Below, one piece after another: positions 50-51,253 of a DNA stretch of 64,000 nucleotides. The notes beneath the pieces were generated by a model. The model searched no databases. It was given only the letters and a program-made list of their open reading frames with translations, and was not told where the DNA came from. Origin of the DNA: Candidatus Magasanikiibacteriota bacterium (GTDB taxonomy: Bacteria; Patescibacteriota; Patescibacteriia; Magasanikbacterales; GWA2-37-8). Both the position numbers and the translations under genes were made by a program. Location of the stretch: contig JAGOQR010000001.1 in assembly GCA_017991415.1 (NCBI GenBank), positions 341,992-405,991 on the forward strand. The letters are read 5' to 3'. The stretch's first letter is position 1. Each line of letters starts with the position of its first letter.

Positions 50-385
50 CTAATAATTTTTTAATGAGATCTCTGCAGACCAAAATCTAGAAAAGTTTAG
101 TCCGCTATAATATAGTGCCGTACCATTAACCGTACTATAGACTCTATGTACTGACCCGTATCTTACACCAAACCAAGTATATAAATAAGTTACTTCATTA
201 TTATGACTATCAACATCATCATCTATCGCCAATACAAAAAAGTTTTCTGTTCTGCTAAGCATACTCCTTATATCCTTTTCTAAAGAAGACTTCTGTGAAA
301 AATCAGTAATCACAAAAACAGGAATTATATACCCTAGTGCTGCAACAGCTATAACTATTAAAATAATCTTAAGGGATTTAGCCAT
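50..385 (-). CDS. hypothetical small membrane-anchored protein (111 aa)
   Basis: ORF with ATG at 383-385. N-terminal hydrophobic helix (KIILIVIAVAALGYIIPVFVI) then a soluble part. No recognisable family. Confidence 0.45.
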   Translation of the reverse strand: MAKSLKIILIVIAVAALGYIIPVFVITDFSQKSSLEKDIRSMLSRTENFFVLAIDDDVDSHNNEVTYLYTWFGVRYGSVHRVYSTVNGTALYYSGLNFSRFWSAEISLKNY

Positions 386-2992: not shown

Positions 2993-3241
2993 AATTGAAA
3001 CAAATCAATAATTCTAAAATAAATACGGGTGTAGATATAGCTAATATACTACTAAAATTAAGGAAAATAATCAAACTAAACGGTTGACACGGTAGGCAAA
3101 AATTGATAGGGTCAATAATCCATAATTTATGGATTTCACCAGTTTTCAAGTAATATAAATAATGAAAGAGTGGTCTACACCCGAACTCAATCGGGTTACA
3201 CCCATTTCAAAACGCTGCTTACTTACCAGGTGTAGCAAGGA

Positions 3242-3296
3242 ACCAACGTGCATATCAGTGATTATCCGAATGATTATAATTGATATGCGCGTTGGT
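3242..3296. repeat. imperfect 16-bp inverted repeat (hairpin, 23-nt loop) at the AT-to-GC composition boundary
   Basis: ACCAACGTGCATATCA (3242-3257) pairs with TGATATGCGCGTTGGT (3281-3296) with 1 mismatch. Confidence 0.5.
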
Positions 3297-3301
3297 AGCC
3301 A

Positions 3302-3313
3302 GGTCAATTGACC
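3302..3313. promoter_or_regulatory. perfect 12-bp palindrome GGTCAATTGACC immediately upstream of the small GC-rich ORF
   Basis: Self-complementary sequence read directly. Lies 10 nt upstream of the ATG at 3323, in an operator-like position. Confidence 0.4.
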
Positions 3314-3322
3314 TAGGACAAC

Positions 3323-3514
3323 ATGCAGGCTTGCCCTGCCCAGTGGGCTCTGTCAAAGAAGACGTTCATGGCGACTTACAATCCCTGGACTGTGAGAATC
3401 TTGACTGCGATTGGTGTCATCCTCCTGGTCACAATGACCACGATCGTAGCCAAGGACATCATCTCGCACAAGGCGCCCCAACCACAAAGGCTCCTTGCCC
3501 CACCCAAGAAGTAG
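3323..3514 (+). CDS. small predicted membrane protein (63 aa) in GC-rich cassette 1
   Basis: ATG preceded by AGGA (3315-3318). Single TM segment (ILTAIGVILLVTMTTIVA), basic C-terminus, TAG stop. Codon composition is GC-rich unlike its neighbours. The TM-coding core is homologous to the minus-strand ORF at 30577-30861. An antisense GTG-start ORF (3353-3577) is the alternative frame. Confidence 0.35.
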   Translation: MQACPAQWALSKKTFMATYNPWTVRILTAIGVILLVTMTTIVAKDIISHKAPQPQRLLAPPKK

Positions 3515-3560
3515 CATGAGAAGAACGGTCCCTGACCCCCTCCTCAACAGCGTTTCCCCT

Positions 3561-3590
3561 GCACCTCCGCCAACCACGGAGGTGCCACTA
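3561..3590 (+). terminator. GC-rich hairpin (9-bp perfect stem GCACCTCCG/CGGAGGTGC, 7-nt loop) then a T-rich tail
   Basis: Stem 3561-3569 / 3577-3585, followed by CACTATTTAT. Candidate terminator of the cassette-1 ORF. Confidence 0.4.
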
Positions 3591-3597
3591 TTTATGC

Positions 3598-3626
3598 TTG
3601 ACAGGTGGCCAAAACCCTGCTAGAAT
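3598..3626 (+). promoter_or_regulatory. sigma70-like promoter TTGACA-N17-TAGAAT for the downstream DHH gene
   Basis: TTGACA 3598-3603, 17-nt spacer, TAGAAT 3621-3626. About 33 nt upstream of the ATG at 3660. Confidence 0.6.
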
Positions 3627-3659
3627 AGCCTGTTATTTAGATTTTTTGACATACTAACC

Positions 3660-4811
3660 ATGGCTCTAAATGAAACCGAACAATTACGCCATCTTCTTGA
3701 AAAGAGTGGGCATATTTTACTCGTTGTTAATTCCAACCAAAATACGGATGCTCTTTGTGCAGCCATGGCTTGGAAAAAACTACTTGAAAAACAACGCAAG
3801 CAAGTCGACATTATTGCCGACAATTTTGTTTTACCAAAAAACCTTAAATTCCTGAAAGGTCTCGAAGAGGTGCAGCCGCAGCTGTCTCATTTACAAAAAT
3901 TTATTCTAAAAGTAGATATTAGCAACGTAAAAATAGATACACTCAGCTATGATATAAAGGACAACTGGCTCTCAATTTATTTAACACCAAAACAAGGGAT
4001 CATCACTAAAAATGAATTGCGCACTGCTCAATCTGGTTTAAAATACGACCTAATCATTTCAATAAATGCCCAAGACCTAGAGTCGCTTGGAAATATTTTT
4101 TTAAACAACACTGATTTATTTTACAAAGTACCAATTATTAATTTTGACAACCATCCTGGCAATGAACATTTTGGACAAGTGAATTTTGTAGATTTAAGCG
4201 CCACTTCCATCTCCGAAAGTATTTATAAAATAATGGCCCAACTATTTGAACCAGATATTGATGCCACGATGGCAAATTTTTTATTAACAGGGATGATTAG
4301 CCAAACACAAAGTTTCAAAACGTCTAACGTCAGTCCTAACACGCTCAATCTCGCCAGCAAATTAATGAGCTTAGGCGCAGATCGAGAAAAAATTGTAAAA
4401 AATTTATATCGCACCAAATCTATTGCCTCACTTCGTATTTGGGGTATTGCACTTACCCATATGGAAAACGATCCAAAACTTGGATTGGTTTGGACCACAA
4501 TTACCAGAGAAGATTTTGCCCGAACTGGAGCAAGCGAAGACGAGCTACAAGACCTTACCGAAGAACTAGTCCACAACTCTCCTGAAGCCAAAATTATTCT
4601 TTTCCTTAACGAAGATACGAAAGGAGAAAATAAAGTGCATGGTTTTCTATACTCAGACAAACAACATGATGCTAAATTACTTTTACAAGGCTTTCAACCA
4701 GAAGGCAATAAAAAAACTGCCTCTTTTGTAATAGCTGACAAAACTATAAAGGAAGTGGAAACGGAAGTGCTCGCAAAAATTAAAAAAATGATTGGCGATG
4801 CGAACCTTTAA
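3660..4811 (+). CDS. DHH-family phosphoesterase (NrnA-like oligoribonuclease / pAp phosphatase)
   Basis: 383 aa. DHH-superfamily N-terminal domain with an NFDNHPGN motif and a DHHA1-like C-terminal region. Size fits NrnA. Confidence 0.65.
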   Translation: MALNETEQLRHLLEKSGHILLVVNSNQNTDALCAAMAWKKLLEKQRKQVDIIADNFVLPKNLKFLKGLEEVQPQLSHLQKFILKVDISNVKIDTLSYDIKDNWLSIYLTPKQGIITKNELRTAQSGLKYDLIISINAQDLESLGNIFLNNTDLFYKVPIINFDNHPGNEHFGQVNFVDLSATSISESIYKIMAQLFEPDIDATMANFLLTGMISQTQSFKTSNVSPNTLNLASKLMSLGADREKIVKNLYRTKSIASLRIWGIALTHMENDPKLGLVWTTITREDFARTGASEDELQDLTEELVHNSPEAKIILFLNEDTKGENKVHGFLYSDKQHDAKLLLQGFQPEGNKKTASFVIADKTIKEVETEVLAKIKKMIGDANL

Positions 4812-6385
4812 ATAAGAGGCTCCCCGGTCATATCTTCTGGCTGACCTACTCCCAATAATTTTAAAACCGTTGGTGCCACGTCTGCCAACACACCGACCGG
4901 TTGCATGAGACTTAAATCGCCTTCTGGCGGATCTCCAGACGGCCCTGCTTGACCCATAAAATCTTGCCCTATAATAATAAGCGGAACTGGATTAGTTGAA
5001 TGCTCTTTATCCATTTCTCCTGTTTGTAAATTACTCATTTCTTCGGCATTGCCATGATCTGCTGTTATTACCATAACTCCATTTTGGGCTAAGGTATGAT
5101 TGGCAATATCTCCTAAACACTTATCAATAATTTTGCAGGCCTTGATACCTGCCTCCAAATTGCCTGTGTGGCCAACCATATCCGCATTGGCGAGGTTGAG
5201 GACAATAAAATCATACCCCCCCTTATCAATTATTTTATTTACTTCTTTGGTAATTTCTAAAGCAGACATTTCTGGTTTTTGATCATAGCTTGGCACTCGA
5301 GCCGAAGGAATAAGTAATCGCTCTTCTCCTGGAAACGGCTCTTCTACTGTGCCATTTAGGAAAAAGGTTACGTGGGCATATTTTTCTGTTTCTGCAACAT
5401 GCATTTGTTTGAGACCTGCTTTGCTTATGACCTCCGCCAAACAATTATGCACTGCCATTGGAGCAAACGCTACGGCCACTGGTAAGTTTTTTTCATACTC
5501 CGTCATAGTCACCACAAACAAATCTTTTATATACTCTTTAGAAAATTTGTTAAAAGATGGCACTGCAAAAGCCTCGGCTAGCTCGCGACCTCTATCTGGT
5601 CTAAAGTTAAAAAATATTACCGCATCACCAGAATCTACTGTTGCGACAGGTTTGTTTTTTGATGTTAAAACTGTTGGAATAAATTCTTCATCGTAATTTT
5701 TTTGCGCATACGACTGGTCGATGGCTGCAAGCGCATCGCTATTATTTCTATCCGCTTTACCTGCCACAATAGCTTGGTACGCTTTTTCACACCTATCCCA
5801 TCTATTATCTCGATCCATAGCAAAATAACGCCCCGATAAAGTTGCAATCTTACCAACTTTTAATGTATCTATTTTTTCTTGAAGCTCGGTGATAAACTCT
5901 CGGCCAGAATTATATAGCGCATCACGCCCATCAAGAATAGCGTGCACAAAAACATTTTTGGTTAATTTTTCTTTTTTACATAATTCAAGCAACGCATACA
6001 GATGCTCATTACTTGAATGAACATTACCAGAACTTACCAACCCAACTAAATGAAGCTTGGAATTATTTTTTTTAACCTTTTCTATAGCTGATAAAAAAGC
6101 TTGATTTTCAAAAAAACTACCTTCGTCGATTGACCTGTTTATTCGTGGGCAACTTTGATAATAGACTCTTCCCGCCCCAATATTAAGATGGCCGACTTCG
6201 GAGTTTCCCATTTCTCCAAACATTAAACCCACCTCGTTGCCAGAGGCGTGCACAGTCATGGTTGGGTAATTTTGAAGAAATTTTGCAAAATTTGGTGTTT
6301 CCGCTTTGGTAATAGCATTACCATCTACACTCGGAGCCACTCCCCAACCATCCATTATCACTAGCACAACAGGCTTATACTTCAT
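4808..6385 (-). CDS. gpmI: 2,3-bisphosphoglycerate-independent phosphoglycerate mutase (copy 1)
   Basis: 525 aa. N-terminal MDGWG and catalytic serine motif GNSEVGHLNIGAGR. Alkaline-phosphatase superfamily iPGM architecture. Confidence 0.9.
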   Translation of the reverse strand: MKYKPVVLVIMDGWGVAPSVDGNAITKAETPNFAKFLQNYPTMTVHASGNEVGLMFGEMGNSEVGHLNIGAGRVYYQSCPRINRSIDEGSFFENQAFLSAIEKVKKNNSKLHLVGLVSSGNVHSSNEHLYALLELCKKEKLTKNVFVHAILDGRDALYNSGREFITELQEKIDTLKVGKIATLSGRYFAMDRDNRWDRCEKAYQAIVAGKADRNNSDALAAIDQSYAQKNYDEEFIPTVLTSKNKPVATVDSGDAVIFFNFRPDRGRELAEAFAVPSFNKFSKEYIKDLFVVTMTEYEKNLPVAVAFAPMAVHNCLAEVISKAGLKQMHVAETEKYAHVTFFLNGTVEEPFPGEERLLIPSARVPSYDQKPEMSALEITKEVNKIIDKGGYDFIVLNLANADMVGHTGNLEAGIKACKIIDKCLGDIANHTLAQNGVMVITADHGNAEEMSNLQTGEMDKEHSTNPVPLIIIGQDFMGQAGPSGDPPEGDLSLMQPVGVLADVAPTVLKLLGVGQPEDMTGEPLI

Positions 6386-20639: not shown

Positions 20640-20768
20640 ATTTTCCTTATTATTGCCTCCTAGCTTTGCCCCGGAGTGGTCCAAGGGAGGAAAAAAGTAG
20701 CTAGCGAGAGTTAATTAAGATGGGTGGATTATATACGAAGAGCCAAAATTAGTCAAGGTTTCCACGCT

Positions 20769-21146: not shown

Positions 21147-21208
21147 AATTTAGAATTTAATTATTTTTTCGCCTCACCAACTACGAATTTTCATAATTGG
21201 ATTTAGCG

Positions 21209-21231
21209 GCTCGTCTTGGGTGAAGACGAGC
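21209..21231 (-). terminator. GC-rich hairpin GCTCGTCTT-gggtg-AAGACGAGC downstream of the cassette-2 gene
   Basis: Perfect 9-bp stem. About 46 nt past the minus-strand stop. The flanks are not U-rich, so it may be a stability or processing element rather than an intrinsic terminator. Confidence 0.4.
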
Positions 21232-21276
21232 TAGCGGAAATAGACCCGGCCGCGCTTTTGATTGCGCTTTCAGGTA

Positions 21277-21870
21277 CTATTGGAACGGAGACCAGCGAAC
21301 TTCCACCACGGGACGCTCTTCGCTGACCTTGATGGTCTGGGGGCTTGTTTCACACCGATGCTCACAGGGGAGCCTCGTCATCATCACCGTATAGGTTCCC
21401 GGTGCCGAAAGGTAGATCTCGCAGGGCTCGCGAACACCTTCGTAGTGTCCACACCACTTGCGATCCTGACCAGGAACATCCATCTGCACGGAGAAGACAC
21501 CGATTTCAGGAAACACGAGGCGGTAGTCCTTCTCCAGTTGAATGGTGACGTTGAGCCCTTCACCTATTCTACTATCAAACAAGATGCTCAAGCCCTGATC
21601 CCTGTACCACTTGGGCGGCCTGAGTCCCTTGGGCGCCTCGATCTGGATCGAGTTGAGACCAGGTCCGACAGAACCTCGGAACGAAGTGATACCCGCATCC
21701 AGGTGGTTGATCTGCACCTTCGAAGTGACGGACTGTCCCTGGAAGGTCGTCTCAACCGTAGTGATGCCCTTGATGGGGAAGAGCTTCCAAGAGGCGAAGC
21801 CGTTGTAGCAGAGCGCCACCGCCGCAGCGATAAGCGCAGAGATGAATACAAACCAAAACACTTTACGCAT
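21277..21870 (-). CDS. GC-rich exported/membrane-anchored hypothetical protein (197 aa), compositionally foreign
   Basis: GAAGGGG Shine-Dalgarno 6 nt before the ATG at 21868-21870. N-terminal signal/TM (MRKVFWFVFISALIAAAVALCY). Four Cys near the C-terminus. GC3-rich codons unlike the neighbours. The overlapping plus-strand ORF (21262-21915) is Arg-rich, a typical mirror-frame artefact. Confidence 0.55.
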   Translation of the reverse strand: MRKVFWFVFISALIAAAVALCYNGFASWKLFPIKGITTVETTFQGQSVTSKVQINHLDAGITSFRGSVGPGLNSIQIEAPKGLRPPKWYRDQGLSILFDSRIGEGLNVTIQLEKDYRLVFPEIGVFSVQMDVPGQDRKWCGHYEGVREPCEIYLSAPGTYTVMMTRLPCEHRCETSPQTIKVSEERPVVEVRWSPFQ

Positions 21871-21908
21871 TTGAGCCCCTTCGATTCGATTATGCCTTGT
21901 TCAGGCGA

Positions 21909-21960
21909 GTTTTAATGTGTGAAAAACCCACTTACTTACAGGCTATTCACACATTAAAAC
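21909..21960. repeat. perfect 15-bp inverted repeat GTTTTAATGTGTGAA ... TTCACACATTAAAAC in the leader of the cassette-2 gene
   Basis: Arms 21909-21923 and 21946-21960 with a 22-nt loop. Sits between the predicted minus-strand promoter (-10 at about 21990) and the start codon at 21870. Confidence 0.45.
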
Positions 21961-21989
21961 TATTACATCCACTTTAGATATAACTGCAT

Positions 21990-22051
21990 AGCATAGCACA
22001 AAATTTGGCTTTTGTCAACATATTGACAAACACAAGCAATGATGCTACTAT
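21990..22051. promoter_or_regulatory. divergent promoter pair built on an 18-bp palindrome TTGTCAA-CATA-TTGACAA
   Basis: Plus strand has TTGACA (22023-22028), a 17-nt spacer and TACTAT (22046-22051) for rpmE. Minus strand has TTGACA (rc of 22013-22018), a 17-nt spacer and TATGCT (rc of 21990-21995), which would drive the cassette-2 gene. Confidence 0.5.
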
Positions 22052-22476: not shown

Positions 22477-23559
22477 ATGCAAAAAAAATACTTAGAGATA
22501 GAAAATAAATTTAGACAACTAGAAGCCGATTTACAAGATCCGAGCGTGCTTAATGATCCTAAAAAAATCAAAGACATCTCTCAGGAATACACAGAACTCA
22601 AACCTACTGTAGAAAAAATACGAGAACTAGCGATAACTGAAAAAGCAATCTCAGAAACTCAAACTATTGTTGATACTGAACCGGATGCACAAATGAAAGA
22701 AATGGCTGCTGCCGAGTTGCCTGATTTAGAAAATAAAAAAACATCTCTCGAAAAAGAATTAGATGAAATGACCAGACCACAAGATCCATTTGATAAAAAA
22801 AGTGTGATTATGGAAATCCGTGCTGGTGTGGGCGGTGATGAATCAGCCTTATTTACCGCTGAGCTGTACCGCATGTATACCCGATATGCCGAAAACCAAG
22901 GCTGGAAAACAACCATGCTTGATTGTAACCGCATTGGTATTGGTGGATTTAAAGAAGTTATTTTTTCCATCAAAGGCAGAAATGTATATAAGGATTTAAA
23001 ATACGAAATGGGCGTGCATAGAGTACAACGAGTGCCTGATACCGAAAAAGCTGGCCGTATCCATACCTCAACCGTTACCGTAGCCGTACTACCTGAAATA
23101 GAAGAAACCGAAATTAAAATTGAACCAAAAGATTTGCGCATCGACACATTCTGTTCAGGTGGCGCGGGCGGACAAAGTGTTAACACCACCTATTCGGCTG
23201 TGCGTATCATCCATATTCCAACCAACATCATGGTGCAATGTCAGGATGAACGATCTCAGACTGCCAACAAAGAAAAAGCTATGGCCGTATTACGTGCCCG
23301 TATTTATGCTGCTGAACGTGAGGAAAAAATGAAGGCTATTACCGAAAAACGACGTTCCCAAATTGGTAGTGGCGACCGTAGTGAAAAAATCCGTACCTAT
23401 AACTTCCCTCAAGACCGCATTACCGATCATCGTATTCATCAAAATTGGAATAGCATTCCTCGAATCTTAGATGGCGAACTTGAGCAAATCATACTCGCGG
23501 TACGTACCGCTGAATTTGAAGGTTTTGACACAAGCGCAAACGACGAAGACGAAGATTAA
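22477..23559 (+). CDS. prfA: peptide chain release factor 1
   Basis: 360 aa with a GGQ motif ([10 protein letters not shown]). The RF1-type tripeptide region reads [14 protein letters not shown]. Adjacent to prmC. Confidence 0.9.
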
Positions 23560-23569
23560 TCTAATCCAG

Positions 23570-25030
23570 ATGCAAAAGTTTAAAAAATACTTCCCTATTG
23601 CCCTTATTCTTATAACGGCTTTCTTTTTGCGTTTACTTATACTTTTTAAGTACGGTAATTTGTGGAGCGACGAATGGTTTAGCATTACCTACAGCCAAAA
23701 ACCGTGGTACTCCAGCCTCACAAAGTTTTGGATATGGGAGACTAACCCTCCCTTACACATGATCTTTCTTAAAGCCTGGTTTTATATTGCGCCCGTTACC
23801 GAATTTTGGGCACGCACTTCGAGCACCATCATTTCCTTATTATCCATAGCTATCCTGTACATTTTAAACAAAAAACTATTTAACGAAAAAATTGCCCTTG
23901 TAAGCGCAGCTATACTCTCCGTAACACCTGTACACTTATTTTTTTCTGCTACTGTTCGTGCCTATGCCCTCCTACTTTTTTTTACTATTATTTCTACCTA
24001 TTACTTTTTTACTATTTTTTATTCCCAAGAAAAAACAAAGAAAAATATTCTTTTGTTTATTCTCTTTACCACCCTTCTTTTATATACCCATCTGACCGCC
24101 ACTCTCGTACTTGCAAGCCAATTTATAGCTCTCCTTATTACCAATCGAACCCAAATTAAACAATGGATTAAACAAATACTACTGCCCGTTGTTTTTTTAC
24201 TCGTATGGGCAATTCCCTCTTTGACTTACAAACTAACATTTAACACTGTCCAAAACGGATGGTTTTTTAATATCAAAAGCAACTACTTAGATGTCGTTGA
24301 AAAAATAGCTTCTTTGTTTATCGGATACACAGATTGGAAAATAGGCATCCTCGCGCTTTTTGTATTCGGTTATGGCACATACTTGTTAATTAAAAAACAA
24401 CGTCAATCTAATCAGCATAGCACTATTATAGTTATTTATATTCTATTTTTATTTCCTATTTGCTGTGCACTTTTTCTCAACCTACTCAATATCAAGTTCT
24501 TTTTAATTACCTTGCCATGGTCTATAACACTTACTGCTTATTTACTCCATACATTTAATAAAAAATATATCGGACATTTTATTATTTACACCCTCCTTAC
24601 AATTAACGCCTTTTCCTTATACAAAAGTTTACCGCTTAACAATTGGCAGCCCGTAGATAGTTATATTAACCAGAGATACAATTCCAGCACCAAACAACTT
24701 ATTATCTACAATTCCTTTACCCAAAAACACGAGGTAGAGCATTACCTAACTACACAAATACCTGCCTATGCCTACGTACCTCACAACACCGACTGGGATA
24801 ATTATTTAATTACTAATAACTATTTACGATATATTCATCCAGATTCAGAAATTAAAAAATGGCTAAACGATTACCAGATACATACATTTCAAGAAATAAT
24901 ATTACTTGATGATAAAGATGTTGGTATAGATATCGCCCCTATACTATTACAGCAAAACTGGCACGAACAAGAGCCAGCATTTAAAGCCCCTTTGGCGGCC
25001 AATGTGTACGTGCGCTATTTTAAAAAATAA
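23570..25030 (+). CDS. glycosyltransferase family 39-like (ArnT/PMT-type) integral membrane protein
   Basis: Start set at MQKFKKYFPIALIL just after the prfA stop. Polytopic membrane protein with a DE-type loop motif (WSDEW) near the first helices. ArnT/PMT_2-like. Confidence 0.55.
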   Translation: MQKFKKYFPIALILITAFFLRLLILFKYGNLWSDEWFSITYSQKPWYSSLTKFWIWETNPPLHMIFLKAWFYIAPVTEFWARTSSTIISLLSIAILYILNKKLFNEKIALVSAAILSVTPVHLFFSATVRAYALLLFFTIISTYYFFTIFYSQEKTKKNILLFILFTTLLLYTHLTATLVLASQFIALLITNRTQIKQWIKQILLPVVFLLVWAIPSLTYKLTFNTVQNGWFFNIKSNYLDVVEKIASLFIGYTDWKIGILALFVFGYGTYLLIKKQRQSNQHSTIIVIYILFLFPICCALFLNLLNIKFFLITLPWSITLTAYLLHTFNKKYIGHFIIYTLLTINAFSLYKSLPLNNWQPVDSYINQRYNSSTKQLIIYNSFTQKHEVEHYLTTQIPAYAYVPHNTDWDNYLITNNYLRYIHPDSEIKKWLNDYQIHTFQEIILLDDKDVGIDIAPILLQQNWHEQEPAFKAPLAANVYVRYFKK

Positions 25031-25897: not shown

Positions 25898-26974
25898 CTA
25901 CGGGCTCGAATTAGCTGCGGATACTTTCATATTTTTATCAACTACTTCAATCCAGGTGTTACCTGGAGTAAGCACAATTTCCTGGCCATTTGCATCATAA
26001 AAACGAGTACGGCCTGACAGACTTTTTTTCTCCCATGTTCCGTGCACGACCTCACCTTTTCTTAAAATAGTCGCCTCACCACTACCCACAGTTTTTATTT
26101 CTTGCCTACCCTTATCATCATTGGCAATATCTTCTACGCTGGTAACTTGAACTATAATATTGCGAGCCCACACTTCCGAACCATCTCTGTCTCGTTCATT
26201 TTTACTATTTATACTGCGCTGATACTGCATCGTAGCAGAATCATATTTCCAAGCTATCGTATACCCAACACTAAAAGTAATTTGTAACTCACTACTACTT
26301 GCTACGCTACTACCAACATCCTGATCAAACTTCCAAGCCATATCTGCAGTAAACAATGAGCTCGAGTTCGCTCGCCTATCTAACATTGCTTGCCAATTTT
26401 TACTGCTGATAAATAAATTATGTGGGGCAAAATGATGTGTACCGCGCCAAAAATATTGCCCCCAGAAAAACTCATTGGCATCAAAAATTTTACGAGGCTT
26501 AATAGCAGCGAGCGCTTGTGGTGACCCACCAGAATGAACATATAAGCCATCACCATATTCTTGAATCCAATCTAAAAAATATAGCCTGGCACTTCGTACA
26601 GGGCCAACTTCAGCTACTTCTTGCGCGCTATCAAAAATCGCAAAATAACGAGTAATACCACCTTCTACCATTGCTTCATATACGATTTTGGCACGAGAAA
26701 CACCAGACTGCGGCCATGCATCAACGTGATTATCTATCATAATACCTACTGCTCGCACACTTGTTTCTTCCTGAGAATTAACTGCTGCACCATCAAGCGG
26801 ATTTTGAAACTCTATTTTTTTAGCACTGTGTAAAACGCCCTCTTGGAACGGAAACACAACTAGGGATCTTTCTGAAAATCTATACCAAATTGCCGACCCA
26901 AGAATAAAAATCAAAAAAAATATAGCATATACCGAATACGGACGAATCCTTGATAAACGAAAAGGCATTTTCAT
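25898..26974 (-). CDS. DUF3048-like (YerB family) membrane-anchored protein
   Basis: 358 aa. N-terminal TM, then an ITRYFAIFDS-type motif and a C-terminal beta-rich domain. Tentatively assigned to the YerB/DUF3048 family. Confidence 0.45.
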   Translation of the reverse strand: MKMPFRLSRIRPYSVYAIFFLIFILGSAIWYRFSERSLVVFPFQEGVLHSAKKIEFQNPLDGAAVNSQEETSVRAVGIMIDNHVDAWPQSGVSRAKIVYEAMVEGGITRYFAIFDSAQEVAEVGPVRSARLYFLDWIQEYGDGLYVHSGGSPQALAAIKPRKIFDANEFFWGQYFWRGTHHFAPHNLFISSKNWQAMLDRRANSSSLFTADMAWKFDQDVGSSVASSSELQITFSVGYTIAWKYDSATMQYQRSINSKNERDRDGSEVWARNIIVQVTSVEDIANDDKGRQEIKTVGSGEATILRKGEVVHGTWEKKSLSGRTRFYDANGQEIVLTPGNTWIEVVDKNMKVSAANSSP

Positions 26975-30247: not shown

Positions 30248-30405
30248 ACCAAAATGGTAATTTATTTTTGCAATTATTACTACAGTATACCTTAAAATAA
30301 CTTTTTTAAAAACTCTGTAAAATATTTCATAAAATAAAGGCCGCCCTCCGAAGCACAGACACTGCACGAGCACCTCAGATTTATTATATGATTAGAAAAA
30401 ATAAA

Positions 30406-30435
30406 ACACAAGCCAGTATTTGGCTTGTGTTTTTT
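30406..30435 (-). terminator. hairpin ACACAAGCCA-gtatt-TGGCTTGTGT flanked by A/T runs; downstream of the cassette-3 minus-strand ORF
   Basis: 10-bp perfect stem 30406-30415 / 30421-30430. T5 run 30431-30435 and A-run on the other side (bidirectional). Confidence 0.5.
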
Positions 30436-30576
30436 ACGCTGTTCTCAAATGTAAAAATTTAAAAACAATGCAACGATGCCAGCCGACCACGTGTCCTTGT
30501 AGGACTTGTCCCTGAACGGGAACTCTGGTGGAAGGCTGGGTAGGAGTTGAAGGAAGGGGTGTGGATCACGCAGCGA

Positions 30577-30861
30577 CTAGAGGCTGCAGATGACGATGGT
30601 CGCAACGATCATGGCGATCGCGACCAGCCCCATGAGCACCATCACGAAGGCCTTGTTCCCGCGGGACGAAGTCTCCACGGTGACCGAAGGCAGCGCCTGG
30701 ACGACCTCCGTCTGGACGGGCTTCGCGCTGGCCGCCGACGCCTGGAACGCATCGTTCTTGGGTGCCGCCTGGGACGGGTACGGGTGGTACGGCACCGACA
30801 GACGGGTGTCAGAGGTGGCGCAGTCAGTGTTGGCATCAGAACGCAAGGCAGGTCCGCGCAT
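30577..30861 (-). CDS. small protein with a C-terminal TM segment (94 aa) in GC-rich cassette 3
   Basis: ATG at 30859-30861 preceded by GGGGGG. C-terminal FVMVLMGLVAIAMIVATIVICSL. The TM-coding core and 3' flank are homologous to the cassette-1 ORF (3323-3514). An overlapping plus-strand ORF (30590-30865) is the alternative frame. Confidence 0.35.
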   Translation of the reverse strand: MRGPALRSDANTDCATSDTRLSVPYHPYPSQAAPKNDAFQASAASAKPVQTEVVQALPSVTVETSSRGNKAFVMVLMGLVAIAMIVATIVICSL

Positions 30862-30941
30862 GTAGGTTCCCCCCGAGAATGACGTTGAGCCAAACAGAAA
30901 CTGTTGGCTATGGTCAGGATGATATTACCCTCTTCATCAAT

Positions 30942-30968
30942 CCATGTAGAGACAATGTCTCTACATGG
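30942..30968. promoter_or_regulatory. 27-bp perfect palindrome CCATGTAGAGACA-a-TGTCTCTACATGG upstream of the cassette-3 ORF
   Basis: 13-bp arms 30942-30954 / 30956-30968. About 80 nt upstream of the minus-strand ATG. Confidence 0.5.
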
Positions 30969-31232
30969 TCTTTAAGAGTAACTACTTCCCGACCATTTAT
31001 ACAACTTTTTTCCTTCAATTTGAAAAGAACGATTATTAGTCTCAAAACTAATAAAAAGCAGTATACTAAAAACACGCTCATTTGTCAATGGTTTTATTCA
31101 CTTTAATCTTTAAATAAACATAAAAAATCCCTTAAATAAGCCAAAAAATAAACTTGGCACATTACCCCACCCTTGCCCTATAAATATCAGTATGATAAAA
31201 TATCATCATAAAATATTTACAATCTTAATTGT

Positions 31233-38805: not shown

Positions 38806-38878
38806 GCGCCCGTAGCTCAGTGGTTAGAGCACTGCCCTTATAAGGCAGGGGTCGACGGTTCAAATCCATCCGGGCGCA
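38806..38878 (+). tRNA. tRNA-Ile with UAU anticodon (intact copy)
   Basis: Hand-folded cloverleaf: acceptor GCGCCCG/CGGGCGC, D-stem GCTC/GAGC, anticodon stem CTGCC/GGCAG with loop CTTATAA (anticodon TAT), T-arm GACGG-TTCAAAT-CCATC (one C-A mismatch), discriminator A, CC encoded. D-arm resembles bacterial tRNA-Ile2. Confidence 0.8.
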
Positions 38879-38904
38879 CCGGAAACTTGTATTTTTTATA
38901 AGCA

Positions 38905-49170: not shown

Positions 49171-49252
49171 GGACGAGTGGCGGAACTGGTATACGCGTAC
49201 GTCTCAGAAGCGTATGGAGCAATCCTTGAGAGTTCGAGTCTCTCCTCGTCCA
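49171..49252 (+). tRNA. tRNA-Leu(CAG), class II with long variable arm
   Basis: Hand fold: acceptor GGACGAG/CTCGTCC, 3-bp D-stem with D-loop GAACTGGTATA, anticodon stem TACGT/GCGTA with loop CTCAGAA (anticodon CAG), 13-nt variable arm, T-arm GAGAG-TTCGAGT-CTCTC, discriminator A. D-arm matches bacterial tRNA-Leu. Confidence 0.8.
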
Positions 49253-49366
49253 CATGCACAATCTAATATATTAAATAATAAAAACCCTTTTTCCAAACTT
49301 CAAACTGGAAATCAAGGAAATTCAATTTTTCTCATACAAAAAATTGGATCTAACTTATACACGTTT

Positions 49367-51253
49367 ATGACAACCAGATACTCAGCCAGCCCCAGCCAAA
49401 ATTCACAAGCAGGCAGCCCAAACAGACAACCTCTCGCTCCACAAGCAGCGCCGTTTCCTGTGCGCCCTCACAACTCAACTATGAACCCTCAAAGGCAGCG
49501 AAGGACCTTTCAGACTAATAGACCTACCAATAACCTACGACCACCGACCAAGCCAACAGAAGGTTCTTCGTTCGCCCGTTTTCGCGTGGAAGAAAAAAAA
49601 TTAAGAGTAGCTGTTATCGGCGGCCTCGAAGAGGTTGGCCGCAACTGTACATTGTTTGAATATGGCGAGGATATTATTTTGGTAGATATGGGCCTCCAAT
49701 TCCCCGAAGAAGACATGCCAGGTATCGACTACATTATTCCTAATATGTCGTACCTAAAGGGTAAAGAAAAAAATATTCGCGGTGTTATTATTACCCATGG
49801 TCACTACGACCATATTGGCGGCATCCCTCATTTGATTCCAAAAATAGGCTTCCCTCCGATCTACGCCTTGCCTATGACCAATAGCATTATTAAAAAACGC
49901 CAAGAAGATTTTAAAGATACTGGCAAATTTTCAATTAATAATGTAAAGCTTACCGACAAGCTACATCTTGGTTCTTTTGAAGTAGAGTTTTTCCATGTTA
50001 ACCATAATATTCCTGATTCCATGGGAATCGTCATTCGCAGCCCAGAGGGCGTAGTCATTCATACTGGAGATTGGAAATTTGACTATCAACCAGTGGGAGA
50101 ACCACCAGCCGATCTGCAACGCATTGCCCGCATTGGCGACCAGGGAGTATTAGCACTAATGAGTGATTCAACTAATGCCATGATGCCAGGTCATCAAACT
50201 TCGGAAACAGAAATTGGCGGAAATTTGGAAACAATCATTCAAAAAGCTCCGGGCCGCATTATTATCGGCGCCTTTTCCTCACTTCTATCTCGCATCAAAA
50301 TGCTTATCGAGCTTTCGGAAAAGCATGGCAAGGTTGTGGCTTTAGGTGGATTTAGTATGAAAAGCAACGTAGAGATCGCCAAAGAACTGGGCTACATGAA
50401 ATTTAACCCAAAAATTCTTATTGACATGCAGCAGGTAGAAAAATATCCGCCTAATAAAGTTGTAATTATTTGTACTGGTGCCCAGGGAGAAAAGAATGCC
50501 TCATTAATGCGCATTGCCACTGGTGAACACCGAGATATTAAACTTGTACCTGGCGACACCGTTGTGTTTTCTTCTTCAGTTATTCCTGGGAACGAACGCA
50601 CAGTCCAACGCCTTAAAGATACGCTATTTAGGAAAGGAGCAGAAGTAGTCCACAACGAAATGATGGACGTGCATGCTGGTGGCCATGCCAAAGCCGAAGA
50701 AGTAAAACTGATGCTGACACTCCTCAAACCAAAATATTTTATCCCTCAGCACGGCAACCATTACATGCTTCGCCTCAATGGCCGTATCGCCGTTTCAATG
50801 GGCATGCCAAAAGAAAATATTTTTATTGCTGACAATGGCCAGGTAATGGAATTTAAAAATGGCGCCGGTGTTTTGACCAAGGAAAAATTGCCTTCAGACC
50901 ATGTCTTTGTAGACGGACTTGGCGTAAGTGATGAAACAAATATTGTGCTCCGTGATAGACAGGTACTTGCAGAAGATGGCATGGTGGTAATTATTGCAAC
51001 CGTAGATAGCAAAACTGGAAAACTAATCCAAAATCCAGATATTATTTCTCGTGGTTTTGTCTTCTTAAAAGAACATAAGGAACTAATTGAGGACTTACGT
51101 CATCGAGTGAAAAAAATGGTAACTGATTCCGACCCTCTTTCTTGGGCAGATACCAATAATATAAAAAATAAACTTCGGGATTATGTTGGTCAATTCCTAT
51201 TTACTAAAACAGAAAAAAGGCCAATGATATTACCTGTTGTAATTGAAGTCTAA
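49367..51253 (+). CDS. rnj: ribonuclease J (metallo-beta-lactamase/beta-CASP) with a low-complexity N-terminal extension
   Basis: Start set at the ATG at 49367; the ORF track starts inside the tRNA-Leu. Motifs HTGDWKFD and VIITHGHYDHIGG, plus beta-CASP and a C-terminal domain. About 80 aa of P/Q/N/R-rich extension before the catalytic core. Confidence 0.85.
   Translation: MTTRYSASPSQNSQAGSPNRQPLAPQAAPFPVRPHNSTMNPQRQRRTFQTNRPTNNLRPPTKPTEGSSFARFRVEEKKLRVAVIGGLEEVGRNCTLFEYGEDIILVDMGLQFPEEDMPGIDYIIPNMSYLKGKEKNIRGVIITHGHYDHIGGIPHLIPKIGFPPIYALPMTNSIIKKRQEDFKDTGKFSINNVKLTDKLHLGSFEVEFFHVNHNIPDSMGIVIRSPEGVVIHTGDWKFDYQPVGEPPADLQRIARIGDQGVLALMSDSTNAMMPGHQTSETEIGGNLETIIQKAPGRIIIGAFSSLLSRIKMLIELSEKHGKVVALGGFSMKSNVEIAKELGYMKFNPKILIDMQQVEKYPPNKVVIICTGAQGEKNASLMRIATGEHRDIKLVPGDTVVFSSSVIPGNERTVQRLKDTLFRKGAEVVHNEMMDVHAGGHAKAEEVKLMLTLLKPKYFIPQHGNHYMLRLNGRIAVSMGMPKENIFIADNGQVMEFKNGAGVLTKEKLPSDHVFVDGLGVSDETNIVLRDRQVLAEDGMVVIIATVDSKTGKLIQNPDIISRGFVFLKEHKELIEDLRHRVKKMVTDSDPLSWADTNNIKNKLRDYVGQFLFTKTEKRPMILPVVIEV

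Follow-up and report, generated by a model that had tools for sequence, protein, structure and literature searches.

A GC-rich gene between rpmE and rpsB of Candidatus Magasanikbacteria as a candidate polymorphic surface-protein locus with hypervariability restricted to the coding sequence

Why should one short gene of an AT-rich genome be written in GC-rich codons? The question is raised by an open reading frame (ORF) of 197 amino acids (aa) in the spacer, or slot, between rpmE and rpsB, in a stretch of 64,000 nucleotides (hereafter the window) which comparison of RpsB assigns to Candidatus Magasanikbacteria, within the candidate phyla radiation (CPR). GC content is 0.53–0.59 over positions 21200–21900 (taken 200 nucleotides at a time) against 0.31–0.43 in the flanks and 0.384 in the whole window. 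The ORF itself has a GC content of 0.55, and its GC content at third codon positions (GC3) of 0.685 lies about seven standard deviations above the mean of 55 ORFs of the window (0.326, standard deviation 0.053); within 30 nucleotides around its ATG, GC content jumps from 0.33 to 0.70. A sequence-only reading of the window had described this GC island in AT-rich DNA and its GC3-rich codons, both of which we find, and had explained them by horizontal acquisition from a higher-GC donor. Our main new finding is that hypervariability at this locus is restricted to the coding sequence (CDS) in the slot; the GC-richness of this CDS is maintained at equilibrium and is not a vanishing trace of recent import.

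The restriction of divergence to the CDS can be seen from a comparison of the window with locus L044. The proteins encoded around the slot are almost identical (RpsB 99.2%, PrfA 98.3%, RpmE 98.0%, L25 97.8%, and Tsf 97.6%), whereas the slot proteins are only 29.8% identical. At the nucleotide level, the flanks are 89–94% identical and the promoter and leader about 80%; similarity stops at position 21860, ten nucleotides into the CDS, and returns at position 21231, in the second hairpin (H2) of the 3′ untranslated region (3′UTR). Hairpins H2 and H3 of the 3′UTR are again 90–95% identical to those of L044, and the CDS is unalignable. In the same comparison, two genes outside the slot also fall below their housekeeping neighbours (98–99%), namely those for a PMT_2-family glycosyltransferase-like membrane protein (23471–25030; 88%) and for a DUF3048 protein (25898–26974; 83%), which indicates that other envelope-related genes are fast-evolving as well.

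Between allele classes, protein identity is 26–41%, and inside the class of the window it is 76–81%. The alleles form discrete classes and do not follow a single fast clock, since the flanks of the window are about equally distant from those of L044 and L005 in synonymous divergence (dS, 0.18–0.39 and 0.07–0.36, respectively), while the slot proteins are 30% identical in the former case and 80% in the latter. The type of the untranslated regions (UTRs) and the type of the CDS are uncoupled: L041 and L046 are 86% identical in the leader, 92% in the 3′UTR, and 30% in the protein, and for L005 and L044 the corresponding values are 88%, 77%, and 34%, indicating recombination at or near the CDS borders. 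A block swap between the window and L005 was also considered and rejected, as the flank dS of 0.27–0.36 is close to the 0.48 of the gene and a fast-evolving protein suffices; it is from L044, L041, and L046, and not from L005, that we argue for allele classes. Neither the 64-kb window nor L044 nor L001 contains a template repeat, a silent cassette, or a second copy, and no repeat of the unit longer than 16 nucleotides was found elsewhere in the window; a mechanism resembling diversity-generating retroelements (DGRs) or the vls and pilS systems would therefore be without a substrate.

All alleles are GC3-rich (0.64–0.83), with C3 and G3 both raised, in loci whose remaining sequence has a GC content of 0.36–0.43 for the slot copies (0.53 in L045, a family member located outside the slot). 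Codon preferences of the family mirror those of housekeeping genes: AAG is used in 85% of cases against 17%, GAG in 65% against 17%, TTC in 79% against 21%, and ATC in 80% against 30%. We polarised synonymous third-position substitutions among three alleles of about 80% identity, which yielded only 36 changes, with 19 from A or T to G or C (weak to strong) on 46 weak sites and 17 in the opposite direction on 92 strong sites. The resulting equilibrium value (GC3*) is 0.69, compared with a current GC3 of 0.67 and with 0.37–0.43 obtained by the same test for prfA, rpsB, and tsf. The weak-to-strong share of 0.53 exceeds the 0.23–0.24 expected under flank rates (binomial P from 9e-5 to 2e-4). In these 36 changes, we thus see no amelioration toward the composition of the recipient. 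Moreover, the bias must be held in place, because classes of about 30% identity are beyond synonymous saturation and are still GC3-rich.

Regional repair bias is an unlikely cause, because the GC bias stops at the borders of the CDS: the leader has a GC content of 0.37, and h125, an ORF located 130 nucleotides away, has a GC3 of 0.29. GC-biased gene conversion is reported to have a regional effect of a few GC3 points (PMC4450053). The slot resembles the genes subject to it in being a frequently recombining locus with raised GC3, but differs in that the shift amounts to about 35 points, is bounded by the CDS, and spares the gene 130 nucleotides away.

The ORF is a genuine gene under purifying selection, as follows from codon alignments with close relatives, in which the ratio of nonsynonymous to synonymous rates (dN/dS) is 0.20–0.23, third-position changes are in two- to threefold excess, and one indel is in frame. 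The antisense ORF of 217 aa is what one expects in the −1 frame opposite a GC3-rich CDS, and hence an artefact; it is interrupted in L041 and L042. Assembly chimerism, a concern of the sequence-only reading, is excluded, because independent assemblies (Logan, ENA, JGI, and NCBI) agree on the arrangement: rpmE diverging from the gene, which is followed by h125 where present, rpsB, and tsf, is found in seven independent assemblies from Logan, ENA, and JGI and, in addition, in JGI contig L043. The exact protein is present in NCBI on contigs up to 831 kb. The coordinates of the unit and of the ORFs around it are given in Table 1.

Table 1. Features of the GC-rich unit and its surroundings (window positions; protein regions in residues)
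Feature	Position	Strand	Remarks
CDS, 197 aa	21277..21870	−	NCBI MBP6859357.1, KBC69_01900, annotated as hypothetical protein (Candidatus Magasanikbacteria bacterium)
Predicted protein layout	residues ~1–30; ~35–120; ~125–195		N-terminal membrane anchor; PEGA-like beta-sandwich; Ig/PKD-like beta-sandwich
Structured 5′ leader, ~115 nucleotides	21871..21989	−	three hairpins and unpaired Shine-Dalgarno GAAGGGG (21882–21876)
Leader hairpins	~21984–21962; 21961–21908; ~21906–21894	−	5′-proximal; long; small, GCCUGAACAAGGC
Leader inverted repeat	21908–21928/21941–21961	−	21 nucleotides, 90% complementary, perfect 15-bp core inside
Structured 3′UTR	21167..21276	−	H1 ~21275–21244; H2 21231–21209; H3 ~21208–21170, ending in UUGGUGAGGCG
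H2 stem	21209–21217/21223–21231	−	perfect 9-bp GC hairpin
Promoter of the GC-rich gene	21990..22018	−	sigma-70 type, TTGACA-17-TATGCT, TG-extended −10; consensus scan, 10/12 matches
Palindrome TTTGTCAA-CATA-TTGACAAA	22011..22030 (half-sites 22011–22018/22023–22030)	.	two putative back-to-back −35 hexamers, rpmE (+) and GC-rich gene (−)
rpmE promoter	22023..22051	+	TTGACA-17-TACTAT, extended −10 TG; consensus scan
Antisense ORF, 217 aa	21262..21915	+	open −1 frame opposite GC3-rich CDS; non-gene
h125, AT-rich ORF, 125 aa	20769..21146	−	separate accessory gene between unit and rpsB, outside the unit

A search of 5.8 billion proteins with the slot protein yielded three close relatives of about 80–99% identity. 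A profile search of 1.84 billion representatives gave 14 matches, four of them small, full-length proteins of 26–31% identity, and the others PKD, SpaA, or Big repeat proteins matched in the C-terminal module only; a second alignment-based search added four further small members. Across both collections, the full-length relatives are small proteins, nearly all encoded in the rpmE/rpsB slot of Magasanikbacteria. All members share one layout in 174–214 aa: a hydrophobic helix, a PEGA-like domain, and a cysteine-bearing beta-sandwich. The second beta-sandwich carries conserved cysteines (Cys140, Cys150, Cys173, and a fourth near position 169) and, in family members, an LPGPGxY-like motif.

PEGA (Pfam PF08308) is a domain of about 70 aa found in archaeal and bacterial cell-surface proteins (PMC2447325), and it matches eight of the nine aligned family members at E ≤ 0.1. 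Two of them, P0008 (24.0 bits) and P0010 (29.8 bits), exceed its gathering score of 20.8 bits. The window protein by itself has no Pfam match even at E ≤ 1, and its membership would follow from homology to the matching relatives. Through these eight members, the family is like known PEGA proteins in its N-terminal beta-sandwich, and it is like them also in its predicted membrane-anchor or cell-surface context. It is unlike them in that the window copy lies under the Pfam thresholds and in that the PEGA-like module is joined to an Ig/PKD-like domain with cysteines, both within one very small single-pass protein.

An AlphaFold2 (AF2) model built from nine diverse sequences (predicted local distance difference test score, pLDDT, 81; predicted TM-score, pTM, 0.64) has a helix at residues 2–30 followed by two all-beta domains, in line with the hydrophobic N-terminus of the ORF, which the sequence-only reading had described as a signal or transmembrane segment. 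The best Foldseek matches in the PDB are beta-sandwich modules of SdrD (B domains), SpaA, BcpA, and SlaB, with TM-scores of 0.25–0.4 and identities of 7–14%. The predicted ectodomain thus has its best structural matches among the tandem Ig/prealbumin-like modules that adhesins and pilins of Gram-positive bacteria contain (SdrD B domains, SpaA, BcpA, and RrgB), but at these scores and without a sortase motif the likeness is one of fold class only. Sequence searches of NCBIfam and the PDB with the slot protein gave nothing significant, and the resemblance of one relative to CopC stayed below threshold. From sequence and model, we infer a small single-pass surface protein with a two-domain ectodomain outside the membrane, probably disulfide-bonded. 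A role as a defence system was rejected, with no match in PADLOC. We found no description of the family in our literature searches; the hypervariable CPR gene of PMC6851277 is a tandem-repeat locus and a different phenomenon.

As the sequence-only reading had proposed for its 18-bp palindrome, a consensus scan places two −35 hexamers there, one for rpmE and one for the GC-rich gene. All family members, also those encoded outside the slot, have the element TTGACAAAAG conserved upstream. Two promoters placed side by side explain the palindrome better than an operator of fixed geometry would, because the spacing of its half-sites differs among alleles (3, 4, or 9 nucleotides) and empty rpmE–rpsB slots retain the rpmE half alone; for the same reasons, a repressor operator is unlikely.

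The leader folds with a z-score of −5.4, and its consensus structure in five alleles comprises 37 pairs, six of which show compensatory double changes. In the leaders of L041 and L046, the long hairpin is missing and the small GCCUGAAAAGGC hairpin is retained. The 3′UTR folds with a z-score of −6.1; over eight alleles, 90.7% of the cells in its hairpins are paired, compared with 32–42% in slid controls, and there are 10 double-change pairs against 0–3, values that none of 500 shuffles reached. The inverted repeat, the downstream GC hairpin, and the Shine-Dalgarno sequence described in the sequence-only reading are all present (Table 1). Of the view taken there, the following is supported: the gene encodes a protein that is exported or anchored in the membrane, it has a promoter of its own and a structured leader, and it shares a palindromic divergent promoter with rpmE. 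The terminal hairpins would mainly stabilise the mRNA, perhaps with protein binding, and would not form a riboswitch; this is suggested by a hairpin at the predicted 5′ end, several hairpins at the 3′ end, and a free Shine-Dalgarno sequence.

A scan for an intrinsic (Rho-independent) terminator after the gene found none: hairpins are present, with no U-tract (T-run) behind them. No match to a known riboswitch or cis-regulatory RNA in Rfam 15 was found at the gathering score, for the leader either, and at E ≤ 5 only chance-level matches appear. We also considered the 3′ element as part of a generic cassette chassis; probing metagenomes for it turned up only another copy of the unit with its slot gene, but the probe demanded an exact match and is weak, as it would miss variants such as the TTGGTAAGGCG of L044. 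With the same reservation on the probe, the unit does not resemble an integron gene cassette: no attC-type site shared beyond the slot family was found, nor an integrase.

The slot gene is accessory and patchily distributed, because lineages whose RpsB is at least 99% or 88% identical to that of the window carry it, while lineages at 91–92% do not. Distant small relatives occupy the rpmE–rpsB slot as P0008 (L040), P0016 (L041), P0010, P0017 (L044), and P0018 (L046/L047); P0020 (L045) is encoded elsewhere, next to AhpC, in an organism of about 53% GC, and shares a similar TTGACAAAAG promoter. None of 32 GTDB representative loci contains a member of the family. In L010, L016, L018, and L020, the slot is about 195–210 bp long with only the two promoters; in L009, L011, and L014, it holds h125 alone; and in L013 and L008, it is filled by unrelated GC-rich ORFs, an acidic one of 210 aa in the former (region 3846–6000; GC about 0.67, GC3 0.82) and one of 122 aa in the latter (region 5217–6000). 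The placement given by the sequence-only reading, between the rpsB-tsf block and rpmE, holds insofar as an accessory gene has been inserted into what is otherwise a short spacer, empty in several relatives, but the direct neighbour of the gene is h125 and not rpsB.

The ORF h125 is present in L001, L005, L043, L009, L011, and L014, absent from L040, L041, L044, and L046, and has no Pfam match. Its dS relative to L001 is 0.19, compared with 0.007 for the adjacent gene, which suggests mosaic recombination around it. No tRNA gene, direct repeat, or second copy was found near the unit, whose neighbours are rpmE, h125, and rpsB, with no integrase among them.

Two more GC-rich islands of the window contain small genes. 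The island at 3200–3750 holds a gene for 63 aa (3323–3514, +; GC3 0.71) with one membrane helix (residues 23–48), located between valS and a DHH-family gene and followed by a GC-rich hairpin (GGCACCTCCG...CGGAGGTGCC); in sequence, this gene resembles neither of the other two. The island at 30350–31050, with GC content up to 0.65, holds a gene for 94 aa (KBC69_01950; 30577–30861, −; GC3 0.86) with a C-terminal membrane helix, a perfect hairpin in its leader near 30942–30970, and a G-rich Shine-Dalgarno sequence. Only two relatives of the 94-aa protein were found, at 78% and 65% identity. The latter, in a sister strain (L048), has a GC3 of 0.73 and an extra 201-aa gene inserted beside it; as the flanks are about 93% identical in nucleotides, the 94-aa gene is fast-evolving. 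A membrane peptide of 57 aa with a GC3 of 0.81 is encoded in L020 (11044–11217) at a locus other than the slot. The three islands of the window have no sequence in common, and small accessory genes rich in GC3 seem to recur as a class in the Magasanikbacteria lineage. A fourth rise in GC (49351–49650) is not a cassette but the low-complexity, Pro/Gln/Arg-rich N-terminal extension of a 679-aa ORF (49214–51253), which we take to be RNase J-like. Among the tRNA genes of the window are tRNA-Ile with anticodon TAT (38806–38880) and tRNA-Leu with anticodon CAG (49171–49253), which reads CUG, a codon that accounts for 6% of Leu in housekeeping genes and 21% in the GC-rich family.

We consider it probable, if by no means settled, that this is a polymorphic surface-protein locus at which alleles are exchanged between conserved arms, as a self-contained unit in the rpmE/rpsB slot with maintained inverted codon usage. 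What we observe at the slot, in closely related genomes, are deeply divergent alleles whose similarity breaks off at conserved arms. The exchange would proceed by homologous recombination, for which the UTRs, being conserved, and the ribosomal genes on either side would provide the arms; old allele classes would persist under frequency-dependent pressure that phages, or the cell serving as partner or host, exert on the exposed ectodomain, and the slot protein would thereby be a serotype-like surface antigen or adhesin. The GC-rich codon usage, being neither a leftover of a donor nor a product of regional repair bias, would be kept up by some force on the CDS itself.

Several points weigh against this account. 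It gives no cause for the GC bias of the slot CDS. We did not see dN/dS above 1 in the class of the window (three members), where 25-codon windows reach a maximum of 0.5, around the membrane helix and the C140–C150 loop; between allele classes, synonymous sites are saturated and dN/dS is inapplicable. Sampling is thin, with about 12 distinct alleles, many on contigs of 1–3 kb. The window and L044 represent sister lineages of about 90% nucleotide identity and not strains of one species, and the assemblies compared come from different samples rather than one population. As to the force itself, a rather doubtful candidate is selection on synonymous sites, which would keep the inverted codon usage in a class of fast-evolving small membrane or surface genes (63, 197, and 94 aa in the window), either as an expression programme gated by rare codons or tRNAs, a mirror of bldA/TTA control in Streptomyces, or for stable structured mRNAs with terminal hairpins. 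If true, GC-richness would serve surface-variation genes as a means of regulation and would not be a trace of their history.

The explanations that place the origin of the gene or of its composition elsewhere have to be weighed against the same data. A foreign cassette recently received from a higher-GC donor, possibly the host of the episymbiont, would owe its composition to an un-ameliorated donor signature, as the excess of seven standard deviations in GC3, the absence of the gene from the nearest GTDB representatives with the slot empty in several, the distant member in the organism of about 53% GC at an unrelated locus (P0020), and the other GC-rich ORFs in the same slot (L013 and L008) might lead one to expect. 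We nevertheless regard it as unlikely, since GC3* equals the current GC3 and not the value of the neighbours, and since classes of 26–40% identity, all of them GC3-rich, share the slot and also its AT-rich promoter, leader, and 3′UTR. Moreover, among the 5.8 billion and the 1.84 billion proteins we found no close relative from a GC-rich genome, and the site lacks an integrase, a tRNA gene, direct repeats, and any match to phages. Of the marks of a genomic island, atypical composition is present, while amelioration, donor homologues, and mobility hallmarks were not found. On this evidence, to which the co-occurrence of AT-rich promoter, leader, and 3′UTR with covariation belongs, the acquisition from a higher-GC donor put forward in the sequence-only reading is not supported, and neither is a high-GC host, its suggestion for that donor. 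An ancient origin in a GC-richer lineage could still underlie the family, given the distant member in L045. Alleles might instead be imported again and again from a reservoir not yet sampled, a GC-richer lineage or a mobile element that carries the same UTR arms; the equilibrium GC would then be that of the reservoir. Such a history would accommodate the uncoupling of CDS and UTR types, the patchy distribution over RpsB distances, and L045 as a GC-richer organism that carries the family behind a similar promoter. It seems to us improbable, because members with more than 40% identity to another are all found in the slot of Magasanikbacteria, the UTR arms share the AT-richness of the recipient genome, and a tblastn search of 50,697 phage records for a phage origin gave nothing; the same bias in other small membrane-protein genes at other loci of the same genome, furthermore, indicates a property of the genome's own gene class.

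Rewriting of the gene in situ, by a DGR or by conversion from silent cassettes, is very unlikely: DGRs are common in CPR bacteria and some of their targets contain PEGA domains (bioRxiv 10.1101/2020.04.01.020958), and the divergence is indeed CDS-only with hairpins just downstream, but the window, L044, and L001 contain no template repeat, second copy, or pseudo-cassette, and the divergence extends over the whole CDS, including the membrane anchor and indels, instead of a variable region of 100–150 bp. Ordinary purifying selection inside the class, with dS near that of the neighbours, also argues against it. No template repeat, as would accompany a DGR target, was found in the window, whose ORFs were not screened for reverse transcriptase. 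There is hardly any chance that the island is a GC-rich structured RNA or an assembly artefact with a chance ORF, even if a GC-rich island in an AT-rich genome often turns out to be an RNA gene and long ORFs are open here on both strands. The coding substitution pattern (dN/dS of about 0.2, third-position excess, and in-frame indel) refutes an RNA in place of a gene; in spite of their divergence, the alleles have kept their reading frame, their domain layout, and their cysteines; confidence in the AF2 model is high; Rfam gives nothing at the gathering score or at E ≤ 5; and seven or more independent assemblies agree.

Hypervariable surface-antigen loci that lie between conserved housekeeping genes and change hands through homologous recombination are known from the S-layer (slpA) cassette types of Clostridioides difficile, the pneumococcal cps locus (dexB/aliA), and the O-antigen locus of E. 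coli (galF/gnd). The slot resembles them in its discrete divergent alleles at one position with sharp breakpoints at conserved arms, in the uncoupling of allele type from flank type, and in a product predicted to be surface-exposed. It is unlike them in consisting of a single gene of 0.6 kb whose arms are its own structured UTRs together with rpmE and rpsB, and in that every allele keeps codon usage opposite to that of the genome. In Borrelia, the vlsE/vls locus is a GC-rich variable antigen locus in an AT-rich genome, changed by segmental conversion from adjacent silent cassettes. The slot likewise appears to hold a variable surface-protein gene with a GC content far above that of its AT-rich genome, but silent cassettes are absent from the window, L044, and L001, and its alleles are different from end to end.

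CPR bacteria (Patescibacteria) are thought to live attached to other cells, and the surface molecules that determine their specificity for partners and phages are almost unstudied; the locus described here is a concrete candidate. It can be tracked, since the gene is tiny, its allele classes are serotype-like, and its near-invariant ribosomal flanks are usable as anchors for polymerase chain reaction or read mapping. It also cautions that atypical GC content need not mean recent horizontal transfer: here it is at equilibrium and common to alleles of about 30% identity, which indicates that a force on the coding sequence itself maintains the composition. To identify this force would tell something about what shapes the codon usage of reduced genomes.

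A further observation concerns the other side of the slot. The 5′UTR of rpsB (~20640–20727, −; …TCTCGCTAGC…TTTTTCCTCCCTTGGACCACTCCGGGGCAAAGCTAGGAGGCAATAATAAGGAAAATATG) has no match in Rfam at the gathering score and is almost invariant in Magasanikbacteria whose RpsB is only 85–92% identical; it may be an S2 autoregulatory leader.

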